Shown here piece after piece: positions 29,455-55,425 of a stretch of DNA of 64,000 nucleotides. The stretch's first letter is position 1, and every line of letters begins with the position of its first letter. Origin of the DNA: Escherichia coli. Lineage in GTDB: Bacteria; Pseudomonadota; Gammaproteobacteria; Enterobacterales; Enterobacteriaceae. The position numbers and the translations under genes are program-made. Below the pieces are notes generated by a model. The model saw only the letters and a program-made list of their open reading frames with translations. It was not told where the DNA came from and ran no database searches. Location of the stretch: assembly GCF_002854065.1 (NCBI RefSeq), contig NZ_CP024147.1; one strand, given 5' to 3'.

Positions 29455-29817
29455 GGGGCTGATTCTGGATTCGACGGGATTTGCGAAACCCAAGGTGCAT
29501 GCCGAGGGGCGGTTGGCCTCGTAAAAAGCCGCAAAAAATAGTCGCAAACGACGAAAACTACGCTTTAGCAGCTTAATAACCTGCTTAGAGCCCTCTCTCC
29601 CTAGCCTCCGCTCTTAGGACGGGGATCAAGAGAGGTCAAACCCAAAAGAGATCGCGTGGAAGCCCTGCCTGGGGTTGAAGCGTTAAAACTTAATCAGGCT
29701 AGTTTGTTAGTGGCGTGTCCGTCCGCAGCTGGCAAGCGAATGTAAAGACTGACTAAGCATGTAGTACCGAGGATGTAGGAATTTCGGACGCGGGTTCAAC
29801 TCCCGCCAGCTCCACCA
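29455..29817 (+). ncRNA. ssrA: tmRNA (transfer-messenger RNA)
   Basis: ggggctgattctggattcgacggg ... gcgggttcaactcccgccagctccacca; internal tag reading frame gcaaacgacgaaaactacgctttagcagcttaa (ANDENYALAA-stop). Confidence 0.95.
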
Positions 29818-30020
29818 AAATTCTCCATCGGTGATTACCAGAGTCATCCGATGAAGTCCTAAGAGCCCGCACGGCGCAAGCCCTGCGGGCTTTTTTGTGC
29901 CCTGAATTTGTCCCGCGAAGTCCGAAGAGAACTAATTAAATCCGAACCTTTTAGGCCCATTGATAGGCCCAACGAAAAGCTCTATTGTTTTCGTTGGGCC
30001 TAAACGCATGGAGACTCCCC

Positions 30021-31262
30021 ATGGCAAGAAAAACCAAGCCGTTAACCGATACGGAAATCAAAGCCGCCAAACCTAAAGATGCCGATTACCAGCTGTATGA
30101 TGGTGACGGGCTTACTCTGCTAATCAAGTCCAGCGGTAGTAAGCTCTGGCAGTTCCGTTACTATCGACCTCTGACCAAGCAGCGAACCAAGCAGAGCTTC
30201 GGAGCCTATCCAGCCGTCTCCCTTTCTGATGCGCGTAAACTCAGAGCTGAATCTCGAGCTTTGTTGGCGAAAGACATTGATCCTCAGGAACATCAGAAAG
30301 AACAGGTGAGAAATTCTCAAGAGGCCAAAACCAACACTTTCCGGTTAGTTGCCGAGCGTTGGTGGAATGTGAAGAAAGCCAGCGTAACAGAGGACTATGC
30401 CGACGATATCTGGCGCTCGCTTGAGAGGGATGTTCTCCCGGCAATCGGTGATATCAGTGTCACTGAGATTAAGGCTCATACTTTGGTTAAAGCAGTTCAT
30501 CCGGTTCAGGCCAGAGGTGCATTAGAGACAGTCCGCCGCCTTTGTCAGCGTATTAACGAAGTCATGATTTATGCGCAGAACACAGGCCTGATTGATGCGG
30601 TTCCCAGCGTAAACATCGGGAAAGCATTCGAGAAACCGCAAAAGAAAAACATGCCAAGCATCCACCCAGGTCAACTTCCACAGCTAATGCAGACTATGCG
30701 TACGGCAAGTATCAGCCTGTCCACACGATGCCTGTTCATGTGGCAGCTTCTCACCATCACCCGCCCTGCCGAAGCTGCTGAGGCTCGATGGGATGAGATC
30801 GATTTCGATGCTAGCGAATGGAAAATTCCAGCTGCTCGAATGAAGATGAATCGGGAGCATACGGTTCCATTATCTGATGGAGCTCTCGCTATTCTGGAAA
30901 TAATGAAGTCTCTCAGCGGTGGTCGAGAATTTATCTTTCCCAGTCGCATTAAGCCTACCCAGCCGATGAACAGCCAGACAGTAAATGCAGCCCTTAAGCG
31001 TGCTGGTTTAGGAGGCGTACTCGTTTCACACGGCTTACGTTCTATTGCCAGTACGGCACTCAATGAGGAAGGATTTCCGCCTGATGTTATTGAGGCTGCA
31101 CTTGCTCATGTAGATAAGAATGAGGTACGTCGCGCTTACAATCGAAGTGACTATCTTGAGCAACGACGACCGATGATGCAGTGGTGGGCTGATTTTGTTA
31201 AAGCAGCAGATAGCGGCAGTATCGTGAATAGTGGGGTTAGGGGAATACGTCTTGTAGGATGA
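30021..31262 (+). CDS. intA: P4-type tyrosine integrase (prophage remnant at the ssrA attachment site)
   Basis: Start moved to MARKTKPLTDTEIKAAKPKDADYQLYDGDGLTL... (413 aa); C-terminal catalytic region includes HGLRS and a tyrosine near the end. Confidence 0.9.
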   Translation: MARKTKPLTDTEIKAAKPKDADYQLYDGDGLTLLIKSSGSKLWQFRYYRPLTKQRTKQSFGAYPAVSLSDARKLRAESRALLAKDIDPQEHQKEQVRNSQEAKTNTFRLVAERWWNVKKASVTEDYADDIWRSLERDVLPAIGDISVTEIKAHTLVKAVHPVQARGALETVRRLCQRINEVMIYAQNTGLIDAVPSVNIGKAFEKPQKKNMPSIHPGQLPQLMQTMRTASISLSTRCLFMWQLLTITRPAEAAEARWDEIDFDASEWKIPAARMKMNREHTVPLSDGALAILEIMKSLSGGREFIFPSRIKPTQPMNSQTVNAALKRAGLGGVLVSHGLRSIASTALNEEGFPPDVIEAALAHVDKNEVRRAYNRSDYLEQRRPMMQWWADFVKAADSGSIVNSGVRGIRLVG

Positions 31263-31536
31263 ATCCTTTATCAGCACCCATTATGGGTGCTGATAACTCA
31301 CCTATAGGTAATACGGAATTTTACCCTTTGGTTTTCTTTTTTCTAGTAACCGTATTATCGAAAGCCAATTTGATACTCTCAATATTTCTTGACCAGTTTT
31401 TTATAATGGTATCTGCCAATGCATCAGGGCTCATTGTTGATATCCGATATTTTTTACTTTGATTATTAATTTCAAAATTTGGGTGATGCTGCCAACTTAC
31501 TGATTTAGTGTATGATGGTGTTTTTGAGGTGCTCCA

Positions 31537-31812
31537 GTGGCTTCTGTTTCTATCAGCTGTCCCTCCTGTTCAGCTACTGACGGGGTGGTGCGTAACGGCA
31601 AAAGCACTGCCGGACATCAGCGCTATCTCTGCTCTCACTGCCGTAAAACATGGCAACTGCAGTTCACTTACACCGCTTCTCAACCCGGTACGCACCAGAA
31701 AATCATTGATATGGCCATGAATGGCGTTGGATGCCGGGCAACCGCCCGCATTATGGGCGTTGGCCTCAACACGATTTTCCGCCATTTAAAAAACTCAGGC
31801 CGCAGTCGGTAA
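31537..31812 (+). CDS. insA: IS1 InsA (transposition inhibitor; N-terminal part of the InsAB' transposase)
   Basis: 91-aa [68 protein letters not shown]...; the -1 frameshift site A6C (ttaaaaaactc) lies near 31788-31794. Confidence 0.9.
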
Positions 31813-32234
31813 CCTCGCGCATACAGCCGGGCAGTGACGTCATCGTCTGCGCGGAAATGGACGAACAGTGGGGATACGTCGGGGCTAAATCGCGCCAGCG
31901 CTGGCTGTTTTACGCGTATGACAGGCTCCGGAAGACGGTTGTTGCGCACGTATTCGGTGAACGCACTATGGCGACGCTGGGGCGTCTTATGAGCCTGCTG
32001 TCACCCTTTGACGTGGTGATATGGATGACGGATGGCTGGCCGCTGTATGAATCCCGCCTGAAGGGAAAGCTGCACGTAATCAGCAAGCGATATACGCAGC
32101 GAATTGAGCGGCATAACCTGAATCTGAGGCAGCACCTGGCACGGCTGGGACGGAAGTCGCTGTCGTTCTCAAAATCGGTGGAGCTGCATGACAAAGTCAT
32201 CGGGCATTATCTGAACATAAAACACTATCAATAA
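31731..32234 (+). CDS. insB: IS1 InsB reading frame (expressed as InsAB' by -1 frameshift)
   Basis: 167-aa ORF overlapping the insA 3-prime end in the -1 frame. Confidence 0.9.
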
Positions 32235-32249
32235 GTTGGAGTCATTACC

Positions 32250-33713
32250 GAAAAAGGTTACTGGTTTCACGCTTATCAACCCGAAGATCTTTGTACCATC
32301 CACAATCCAATGGGAGATTTGCAGGATTTTATCGCATTGGTTAAAGATGCTAAAAAATTTGGTATCGATATCATTCCTGATTATACCTTTAACTTTATGG
32401 GAATCGGGGGTAGTAGTAAAAATGACCTGGATTATCCCTCTGCTGATATACGAGCGAAGATCAGTAAAGATATAGAAGGTGGTATCCCTGGCTATTGGCA
32501 AGGTCAGGTTTTGATTCCATTTATTATCGATCCAGTAACAAAAGAACGTAAACAAATCCATCCAGAAGATATACATCTCACTGCAAAAGACTTCGAAGCT
32601 AGTAAAGATAATATTTCTAAGGATGAATGGGAAAACCTCCATGCATTAAAAGAAAAGCGTTTAAACGGAATGCCTAAAACAACCCCAAAAAGTGACCAGG
32701 TTATTATGCTGCAAAATCAATACGTTCGTGAAATGCGAAAATATGGCGTACGAGGTTTACGTTATGATGCGGCAAAACACTCAAAACATGAACAAATAGA
32801 AAGATCAATAACCCCACCGCTTAAAAATTATAATGAGCGATTACACAATACTAACTTATTTAACCCAAAATATCATGAAAAAGTCGTTATGAATTACATG
32901 GAATATCTGGTAACTTGCCAGTTGGATGAACAACAAATGTCATCGCTACTTTATGAAAGAGATGATTTAAGCGCCATTGATTTTTCATTGCTCATGAAGA
33001 CGATAAAAGCCTTTTCATTTGGTGGCGATCTCCAAACCCTTGCATCAAAACCGGGTTCCACAATCTCAAGCATCCCATCAGAAAGACGGATATTGATTAA
33101 CATTAACCACGATTTTCCTAACAATGGCAATCTTTTCAATGACTTTCTATTTAACCATCAACAAGATGAACAATTAGCAATGGCATATATGGCCGCTCTC
33201 CCGTTCAGCAGGCCTTTAGTTTACTGGGATGGCCAAGTATTAAAATCAACGACTGAAATTAAAAATGATGATGGGTCGACGCGTGTCGGCGGTGAGGCGT
33301 GGCTTAATAAAGGTTGCTCTACCTATCAGCAGCTCTACAATGAATTCCACGCATTATATATAGATAAAGCAGGAATATGGAGCGCATTTGAGGGTGTATT
33401 TGCAACTAAAAACGTTCTGGCCTTTAGTCGTGGGGATTCTGTGAATATTAATCACTCTCCTCATGACGGACTAGTTATAATAAATAAAGGAAACGAAGAA
33501 GTTGAAGGTACCTGGCCTAACAAATTGCAACCTGGAAAATATAAAAACATGGGGAGTAATAGCGTTAACATTATTATTAATAATACCCGAAAATTTATCC
33601 CCCCTGGTAAAGTATTTACGCTTAGAGGCGGAACTCTAAATATCAATATTCCTGGGCGTAGCGCTCTTCTTTTAGGGAAAACAGGAGAACTGCCGAACTA
33701 TCTCTATTTGTAA
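32250..33713 (+). pseudogene. 5-prime-truncated glycoside hydrolase family 13 (alpha-amylase-like) gene, cut by IS1
   Basis: Frame is open from the IS1 boundary; GH13-like conserved blocks GDLQDFIALVKDAKKFGIDIIPD, GLRYDAAKH and ININHD are present but the N-terminal part of the barrel is missing; no Shine-Dalgarno before the first ATG (32310). Confidence 0.6.
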
Positions 33714-33725
33714 TTTAATGTTATA

Positions 33726-33749
33726 TCTGCCCCGCTAAAACGGGGCAGA
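33726..33749 (+). terminator. Perfect dyad after the GH13 fragment
   Basis: atctgccccg-ctaaaa-cggggcagat, 10-bp perfect arms; no strong T-run follows. Confidence 0.4.
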
Positions 33750-34006
33750 TAATATGTTTAGTTTACTGACGGTCATTTTGCAGTGAAGCCATTTACTGTT
33801 TTTTATCGACCAGATAATCTGTTCTCTGATGGTAATTCCCCCCTAACCTGTTGCTTTAGTTATTCATTTCCTGTCTCACTTTGCCTTAATACCCTACGTT
33901 AAATGTTACTAATTTGTTGTTTTTGATCACAATAAGTAAACAATATGTCGCTTTTGTGCGCATTTTTCAGAAATGTAGATATTTTTAGATTATGGCTACG
34001 AAATGA

Positions 34007-35026
<1,020 letters not shown>

Positions 35027-39084: not shown

Positions 39085-39352
39085 CCCCCATGCCGGAGGC
39101 GACGCTGCGCGTCTTGTCCGGCCTACGAGAGTGTAGGTCGGATAAGGCGTTTACGCCGCATCCGACAATCGGCGCACCCTGCCGGAGGCGATGCTTACGC
39201 GTCTTGTCCGGCCTACGGAAATGTAGATCGGATAAGGCGTTTACGCCGCATCCGACATTCGGCGCATCCATGCCGGAGGCGACGCTGCGCGTCTTGTCCG
39301 GCCTACGAGAGTGTAGGTCGGATAAGGCGTTTACGCCGCATCCTACAATCTG
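39085..39352. repeat. Three tandem REP/BIME units (about 90-bp period)
   Basis: gccggaggcgacgctgcgcgtcttgtccggcctac...taggtcggataaggcgtttacgccgcatccgaca occurs three times with small differences. Confidence 0.85.

Positions 39353-55340: not shown

Positions 55341-55425
<85 letters not shown>

Follow-up and report, generated by a model that had tools for sequence, protein, structure and literature searches.

An IS1 element between an ssrA-linked island and a truncated ygaQ gene in Escherichia coli: the probable joint of a chromosomal deletion

Results

The ygaQ locus

We have analysed the surroundings of an α-amylase-like reading frame in Escherichia coli, within a window of 64 kb (the whole stretch of DNA under study). 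The features that make up the locus, in order along the sequence, are as follows:

29455–29817, + strand: ssrA (tmRNA), the attachment locus of the island that begins with intA (ARAGORN; Rfam RF00023, 295.8 bits)
30021–31262, + strand: intA, an intact gene for a CP4-57-type tyrosine integrase of 413 amino acids (Pfam Phage_integrase, Arm-DNA-bind_3 and Phage_int_M)
31321–31481, − strand: 3′ stub (last 52 codons and the stop) of a gene of the ssrA island encoding 292 amino acids, cut by the left end of IS1
31482–32249, + strand: complete IS1 of 768 bp (exact inverted repeat matches; Pfam domains)
31482–31504, + strand: left inverted repeat (IRL) of IS1, 23 bp, GGTGATGCTGCCAACTTACTGAT, exact
31537–31812, + strand: insA (PF03811 and PF12759, i.e., Zn_ribbon_InsA and HTH_Tnp_IS1, on 31537–31809)
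about 31788–31794, + strand: A6C frameshift site; TTTAAAAAAC is readable at about 31785–31794
31731–32231, + strand: transposase domain (PF03400, DDE_Tnp_IS1, 2.3e-78) in the insB′ frame, which runs to the TAA at 32232–32234
32227–32249, − strand: right inverted repeat (IRR) of IS1, 23 bp, GGTAATGACTCCAACTTATTGAT, exact
32235–32249, + strand: five codons encoded by IS1 (15 nt; VGVIT), by which the ygaQ frame is prolonged upstream as far as the insB stop (direct reading and translation)
32250–33713, + strand: 3′ remnant of ygaQ, codons 264–750 and the stop of a 750-codon GH13-like gene (100% identity to the allele of strain 100416; Pfam)
32310–32312, + strand: first in-frame ATG, which is Met284 in the full-length protein; no Shine-Dalgarno sequence precedes it
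33724–33751, + strand: terminator-like hairpin, directly 3′ of the ygaQ stop
34049–35026, + strand: glaH (csiD), the first intact gene downstream, which keeps its own upstream region

Each of the IS1 terminal repeats has one exact match in the window, with none expected by chance, and the copy of IS1 is active-looking. A target-site duplication of 8–9 bp is absent: the 9-mers that flank the element differ (left, CAAAATTTG; right, GAAAAAGGT). Such absence is expected for the product of a deletion or a recombination, and it is no argument against the identity of the element as IS1.

The integrase gene is annotated as intA in E. coli relatives, and its exact protein was found in public collections. 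The left flank of IS1, 220 bp past intA, is not ygaQ but the stub of an unrelated island gene, whose translation (NFEINNQSKKYRISTMSPDALADTIIKNWSRNIESIKLAFDNTVTRKKKTKG, followed by the stop) matches the C-terminus of WP_001373541.1 from strain I4, where the gene follows intA. In other E. coli, ypjA, a pin remnant, ypjCB and the tRNA gene ileY are located between the ssrA-linked element and ygaQ; none of these occurs in the window, and ARAGORN detected no tRNA-Ile gene anywhere in its 64 kb. The two sides of the locus, ssrA-intA and glaH-gab, retain their usual relative orientation.

Extent of the loss in ygaQ

The remnant (1464 nt) equals nt 790–2253 of the intact allele of E. coli 100416 with 100% identity; it includes neither internal stops nor frameshifts, and its 487 native codons are uninterrupted. 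At full length, the gene has 2253 nt (750 codons) and lies between tRNA ileY and glaH (csiD)-lhgO-gabDTP (100416, DETEC-P666, K-12). Identity as well as position make the window copy the ygaQ orthologue, glaH starting 336 nt downstream of it as in the references, but of the full 750-codon frame behind tRNA ileY only codons 264–750 are present. Sequences matching the 1464-nt remnant at 95–100% identity occur in some 4,100 of the 5,426 complete E. coli genomes.

At its joint with IS1, ygaQ is cut precisely at the boundary of codons 263 and 264. A sequence-only reading of this stretch, made before the present analysis, had called the gene truncated, with the missing length to be quantified by alignment with homologues, and had named full-length homologues starting at the same position as the observation that would speak against truncation. 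The homologues start 789 nt upstream of the joint, and 263 of the 750 residues (35%) are gone, or 283 if translation began at the ATG at 32310. The deleted codons are real coding sequence, since two intact alleles that are ~4% divergent both retain the 750-codon ORF and show between them a dN/dS of 0.135 over codons 1–263 (0.066 over codons 264–750). The G+C content of ygaQ is 38%; the window as a whole has 51% and glaH-gabT 57%.

Domain content of the remnant

The remnant has a marginal Pfam match to the α-amylase catalytic domain (PF00128; 24.3 bits at a cut-off of 22, and restricted to profile positions 49–281 of 446) and another to the α-amylase C-terminal all-beta domain (PF02806; 29.5 bits, cut-off 21.2). 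All NCBIfam matches, to periplasmic α-amylase (PRK09505, MalS-type) over ~50 residues, were sub-threshold, and a finer family assignment is therefore not possible. The closest solved relatives of YgaQ are the Bacillus subtilis α-amylase (1BAG, 3DC0, 1UA7) and Ruminococcus bromii Amy16 (9QF9). Three conserved GH13 blocks could be placed in the remnant:

32754–32780, + strand: region II, GLRYDAAKH, with the putative nucleophile Asp436 (aligned to GFRYDAAKH and GLRWDAAKH of solved amylases)
32826–32843, + strand: region III equivalent, NYNERL, with the putative acid/base Glu459 (aligned to YNYGEIL of R. bromii Amy16)
33096–33113, + strand: putative region IV-like block, ININHD (assigned by eye against the GH13 consensus)

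The remnant keeps all three putative catalytic residues (Asp/Glu/Asp), and the two blocks already reported as intact, GLRYDAAKH and ININHD, are indeed there. Region I departs from the family: its His is replaced by Phe in YgaQ, intact alleles included (DYTFNF versus DAVINH).

When searched against the sequences of solved structures, YgaQ residues 217–312 align with residues 6–99 of the B. subtilis α-amylase (3DC0, 1BAG, 1UA7; E 2e-7 to 4e-7) and also with residues 30–126 of R. bromii Amy16. In these alignments, AILHAFNATY of YgaQ corresponds to TILHAWNWSF, GYIQIPPV to YTAIQTSPI, GYWFHAYQP to NWYWLYQP, and IDIIPDYTFNF to VKVIVDAVINH. From general knowledge of GH13, we take the AILHAFNATY block to be strand β1, GYIQIPPV to be β2 and IDIIPDYTFNF to be β3 with region I. 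The alignment places β1-α1-β2 of the barrel at YgaQ 217–263, and the remnant starts at residue 264; the complete (β/α)8 barrel of GH13 is not present in the window copy, from which β1-α1-β2 are absent.

Intact YgaQ resembles the solved GH13 amylases in that it aligns with them from barrel strand β1 through region I, and again in regions II and III, and in combining a Pfam match to the catalytic domain with a C-terminal all-beta domain. It differs in being very distant (E 1e-7 to 1e-8), in the Phe of region I and in an extra N-terminal region of ~214 amino acids that matches no Pfam family; the first 40 residues of the intact protein are not hydrophobic and there is no obvious signal peptide.

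Since β1-α1-β2 fall in the part that was lost, a barrel with two of its eight strands missing would be very unlikely to form an active glycosidase fold. The sequence-only reading had likewise thought a functional glycosidase unlikely, and the alignment with solved structures agrees; its description of the N-terminal part of the barrel as missing was correct but incomplete, as the N-terminal domain of ~214 amino acids is wholly lost from the window copy too.

The reading frame across the joint

The insB stop (TAA, 32232–32234) lies inside the IRR of IS1 and is in frame with the ygaQ remnant, in keeping with the earlier observation that the frame is open back to a stop codon within the terminal repeat. 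Starting at 32235, the frame begins with VGVITEKGYWFHAYQPEDLCTIHNPMGDLQDF and meets no stop before the one at 33711–33713. The prior for the insB phase matching that of the remnant is one in three, and the open stretch into IS1 is a matter of chance, a by-product of a joint located at a codon boundary in phase with insB.

No ATG, GTG or TTG occurs in this frame before the ATG at 32310, from which an ORF extending to 33713 specifies 467 amino acids. That this ATG has no Shine-Dalgarno sequence, as previously stated, is borne out by the predicted pairing of the 20 nt upstream with the anti-Shine-Dalgarno sequence: +0.9 kcal/mol, against a median of −2.3 for the window background and −5.8 to −6.9 for real starts nearby (glaH, insA, intA). 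Two other candidate starts, ATT at 32244 and TTG at 32319, were rejected despite pairing energies of −5 to −6 kcal/mol, as the GGAG that provides them is located 2–3 nt upstream, too close for a Shine-Dalgarno sequence.

Related copies of the scar

With a query across both IS1 joints, no record covering at least 80% was found in 5,426 complete E. coli genomes. The top matches, unrelated IS1 insertions elsewhere in ygaQ in which the search had joined separate pieces, were rejected as instances of the same event. The exact 467-amino acid ORF product is on record. Among the contigs that encode it are one of the NCBI draft assembly GCA_035821435.1 and one from a metagenome (L010), both with exactly the same IS1-ygaQ joint; the former shows no difference from the window in 4.5 kb of comparison, the latter four differing positions in 2.9 kb. 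A joint 51 bp deeper in ygaQ is found in another metagenome contig (L009) and in the complete genome of E. coli CUWW06.

CUWW06 and the window are 100% identical across intA, the whole IS1 at this locus and the downstream DNA, but CUWW06 is without 109 bp at the left joint (window 31373–31481) and 51 bp at the right one (32250–32300). Both left flanks end in AATTTG, a 6-bp repeat present in the window at 31367–31372 and at 31476–31481. The scar thus exists in two nested states. The state in the window has more DNA on both sides and is therefore either older or independently derived; either way, further loss has occurred exactly at both ends of IS1. In CUWW06, the ygaQ fragment is labelled a pseudogene by PGAP ([quoted passage not shown]).

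The joint as the product of a deletion

The feature is, in our estimation, very probably the joint on the right-hand side of a chromosomal deletion mediated by IS1, with ygaQ left behind as a pseudogene. The left flank is unrelated to ygaQ and no target duplication is present, which argues for a deletion joint and not for a simple insertion of IS1; the preserved orientation of ssrA-intA relative to glaH-gab indicates that the change was co-linear, and therefore a deletion. IS1 would now connect the island-gene stub with ygaQ codon 264, whereas in relatives tens of kilobases separate the two. What would have been lost between them is the interior of the island, ypjA, the pin remnant, ypjCB, tRNA ileY and the first 789 nt of ygaQ; besides the island interior and the ygaQ 5′ end, this would amount to about 10 kb of backbone. 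Strain 100416, with a ygaQ of 100% identity, was considered as the undeleted parent and rejected, because the element at its ssrA locus is a P2-like prophage and not the intA island. It provides the backbone content of the missing segment (ypjA to ileY), not the island content.

The deletion could have come about by intramolecular transposition of IS1 (the classical adjacent deletion) or by homologous recombination between two directly oriented copies of IS1, which would yield the same product. It is part of classical IS1 biology that intramolecular replicative transposition generates adjacent deletions, and that nested deletions extend from a fixed IS1 end. The locus shares with IS1-promoted adjacent deletions the retention of a complete IS1, the truncated, unrelated genes on both flanks and the missing target duplication, as well as the nested extra losses from the exact IS1 ends in near-identical genomes; there is no difference in kind, although recombination of IS1 with IS1 gives the same product and the mechanism is here deduced. 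No ancestral intermediate, be it an IS1 at codon 264 with its duplication or a state with two IS1 copies, was found, so that we infer both the mechanism and the order of events.

A RecA-dependent event, in which direct IS1 copies already present in the island gene and in ygaQ recombined with each other, is possible as the alternative to one-step transposition, but we are inclined to doubt it. Either process ends with one IS1 between non-matching flanks, and an intermediate with two copies is plausible given the repeated insertion of IS1 into the AT-rich ygaQ of other strains; yet none is present among the best matches in the 5,426 complete E. coli genomes, and the nested extra losses located precisely at both IS1 ends in CUWW06 fit an adjacent deletion driven by the transposase better.

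A rearrangement, in which recombination between IS1 copies moved the ygaQ 5′ end, ileY and ypjA to another place on the chromosome, outside the window, appears improbable to us. The 64 kb in view are a part of the genome, and E. coli has many copies of IS1 (a median of 11 matching places per genome). The native mutual orientation of the flanks, however, fits a deletion and not a single inversion between IS1 copies. A weaker point against relocation is that CUWW06 is not among the best 12 full-length matches to the segment of ileY and the ygaQ 5′ end, all of which have at least 99.8% identity, and of which 100416, a sister strain of CUWW06, has 100%.

Expression of the remnant

A deletion joint of this kind could still be expressed, and the sequence-only reading had suggested that IS1 might create an outward or hybrid promoter from which a truncated product is made; neither the promoter scan nor the Shine-Dalgarno pairing lends support to this. 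The outward −35 element of IS1 forms a hybrid promoter only with a −10 element at the right distance (PMC8764528). At the joint, TTGGAG (32236–32241) is followed at 16–18 nt by TTACTG, TACTGG or ACTGGT, and by direct reading none of these is a suitably spaced −10. The scan yielded no promoter-like site spanning the joint, and the number of sites in the region (seven) is close to the 6.4 expected from shuffling; a hybrid promoter at the IS1 end was rejected by scan and by eye alike. The joint resembles the activation described for IS1 (PMC8764528) in that the IS1 end adjoins a coding fragment in sense orientation, and differs from it by having neither a suitably spaced −10 nor a ribosome-binding site.

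Transcripts of IS1 would meet no obvious terminator before the joint. The IS1 promoter is weak and autorepressed, though read-out is possible, and the insB′ frame is reached only by rare −1 frameshifting. In addition, an H-NS-repressed spurious promoter has been mapped within ygaQ (PMC7229825), and the published fragment has its counterpart inside the remnant:

about 32838–32987, + strand: stretch corresponding to the H-NS-repressed spurious intragenic promoter fragment “ygaQ 1.1” (primers of PMC7229825 matched by eye), with a few substitutions as compared to K-12

Since no terminator precedes the joint and a published intragenic promoter lies in the remnant, some RNA is likely to be made from it, whereas nothing in the sequence would suggest productive translation. 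The remnant is a promoterless 3′ fragment without a ribosome-binding site, without the N-terminal domain and without the first two barrel strands, for which reasons we class it as a pseudogene.

We consider it highly improbable that the remnant is expressed and functional, be it as a truncated protein from Met284 (transcribed by read-out from IS1 or from a hybrid or an intragenic promoter) or as an InsAB′-YgaQ′ read-through fusion. Its 487 native codons are open, the putative catalytic Asp/Glu/Asp motifs are present, the insB stop is in phase with it, and both the outward −35 of IS1 (PMC8764528) and the spurious promoter within ygaQ (PMC7229825) could in principle serve it. There is, however, no −10 suitably spaced from the end of IS1, the ATG at 32310 is not preceded by a Shine-Dalgarno sequence, and barrel strands β1-β2 are missing; a fusion would require, on top of rare frameshifting into insB′, read-through of TAA-G, an efficient stop. 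The remnant is 100% identical to an intact allele, as would be the case after a recent event no less than under selection, and the sister genome has lost 51 bp more of the fragment, against constraint at its 5′ end. The wider view that the joint is not inert, and that transcription at a low level, from IS1 or from the H-NS-silenced promoters inside ygaQ, together with the in-phase insB stop, yields a truncated GH13/C-domain protein or a rare InsAB′-YgaQ′ fusion with some retained or new activity (e.g., carbohydrate binding), is scarcely credible.

Discussion

A loss of function in ygaQ has its precedent in K-12, where the gene (formerly ygaQ/ygaR) is a pseudogene at the same locus between ileY and glaH/csiD, described in RefSeq as “alpha amylase C-terminal domain-containing protein” with an internal stop. 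The two copies of the same gene are inactivated in different ways: K-12 ygaQ (97.2% nucleotide identity) keeps the full 2253 nt with nonsense codons at positions 111, 346 and 614, whereas in the window the 3′ 1464 nt are uninterrupted and the 5′ 789 nt are deleted. The sole functional or biochemical report on YgaQ concerns a 110-amino acid N-terminal fragment of the K-12 protein, to which, when over-expressed, a 5′-flap ssDNA nuclease activity and mitomycin C resistance are assigned (PMC4725251). The deletion in the window covers the whole region of that fragment.

The literature treats ygaQ as a horizontally acquired, H-NS-silenced, AT-rich gene (PMC7229825). Simple insertions of IS1 have occurred elsewhere in or beside it, at about nt 990–1005 in strains ZH177 and J3 and just upstream of the gene in HCM-26C-1, but the possibility that IS1 merely interrupts an otherwise intact ygaQ in the window, with the 5′ part directly left of the element, is negligible, refuted by the ssrA-island gene stub found there 220 bp from intA and by the absence of the 8–9 bp duplication. 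IS1 prefers AT-rich targets. The occurrence of IS1 at varied positions of ygaQ in several strains fits this preference, along with weak selection on the gene in many lineages.

This kind of event is already known, the gene is already known to decay, and PGAP already flags the equivalent fragment in CUWW06. The remnant is an ordinary IS-mediated pseudogene, of little importance beyond its correct annotation: ORF 32310–33713 should be annotated as a pseudogene remnant and not as an amylase of 467 amino acids, and the entry for the IS1 should state that it marks a deletion joint. In this lineage, the deletion would have removed ileY, the autotransporter gene ypjA and the greater part of an ssrA island; ileY is one tRNA-Ile gene among others, and the genome may have kept a further copy, like ileX in K-12.

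For the biology of E. coli, the locus adds one more case of ygaQ decay, the gene having been inactivated independently in K-12 and in the strains hit by IS1. The two nested scar alleles in near-identical genomes may serve as a fine-scale lineage marker and as a modest illustration, from nature, of erosion that continues at the ends of IS1.

Two states of the IS1 scar at ygaQ

The IS1 that abuts the ygaQ remnant recurs in the complete genome of E. coli CUWW06 (L012 37600-38600), where the flanks and the IS1 itself are 100% identical to those of the window, yet the same scar is shorter on both sides. At the left joint, CUWW06 has 109 bp fewer (window 31373-31481); at the right joint, CUWW06 and the metagenome contig L009 both have 51 bp fewer (window 32250-32300). 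In both versions, the left joint terminates at a 6-bp repeat, AATTTG (31367-72 and 31476-81). One and the same IS1 scar thus occurs in two nested allelic states. Other E. coli have the tRNA-Ile gene ileY ahead of ygaQ; at this locus of the 64-kb window it is missing (material deleted between 31481 and 32250), as are ypjA and ypjCB.

The stop codon of insB (TAA, 32232-32234) lies in the reading frame of the ygaQ remnant; between the transposase frame of IS1 and the 487 native codons of YgaQ stands just one stop. The 51-bp loss leaves this phase unchanged; it is a coincidence, and nothing points to read-through.

Variation at ssrA and ygaQ amongst strains

Very close relatives differ in what occupies the ssrA site. 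In CUWW06, a P2-like prophage of ~33 kb separates ssrA from intA (L012 2825-36160), while the window is devoid of it (29773-29819); strain 100416, which carries an intact ygaQ, has a P2-like prophage at ssrA and lacks the intA island.

The ygaQ locus is a recurrent target of IS1: strains ZH177, J3 and HCM-26C-1 harbour independent IS1 insertions in or beside the gene, at other positions, and the one just upstream of ygaQ in HCM-26C-1 adjoins another integrase island. In K-12 HMS174, ygaQ (L003 5212-7464) has three Trp-to-stop changes, at codons 111, 346 and 614. The 110-amino-acid "YgaQ nuclease" (PMC4725251) is simply the K-12 piece ahead of the first of these stops; it falls before the GH13 barrel, in a part of the protein that matches no family.

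Elsewhere in the window, Rfam identifies REP/BIME-derived elements, of which a tandem pair follows gabT and a third match occurs further downstream:
39136-39303 and 55342-55419, naRNA4, three matches

The GH13 region of YgaQ

In GH13 conserved region I (window 32303-32312; YgaQ residues 303-312), Phe replaces the usual His (DIIPDYTFNF). The same replacement is seen in intact ygaQ alleles, so that intact YgaQ may not be a conventional alpha-amylase.
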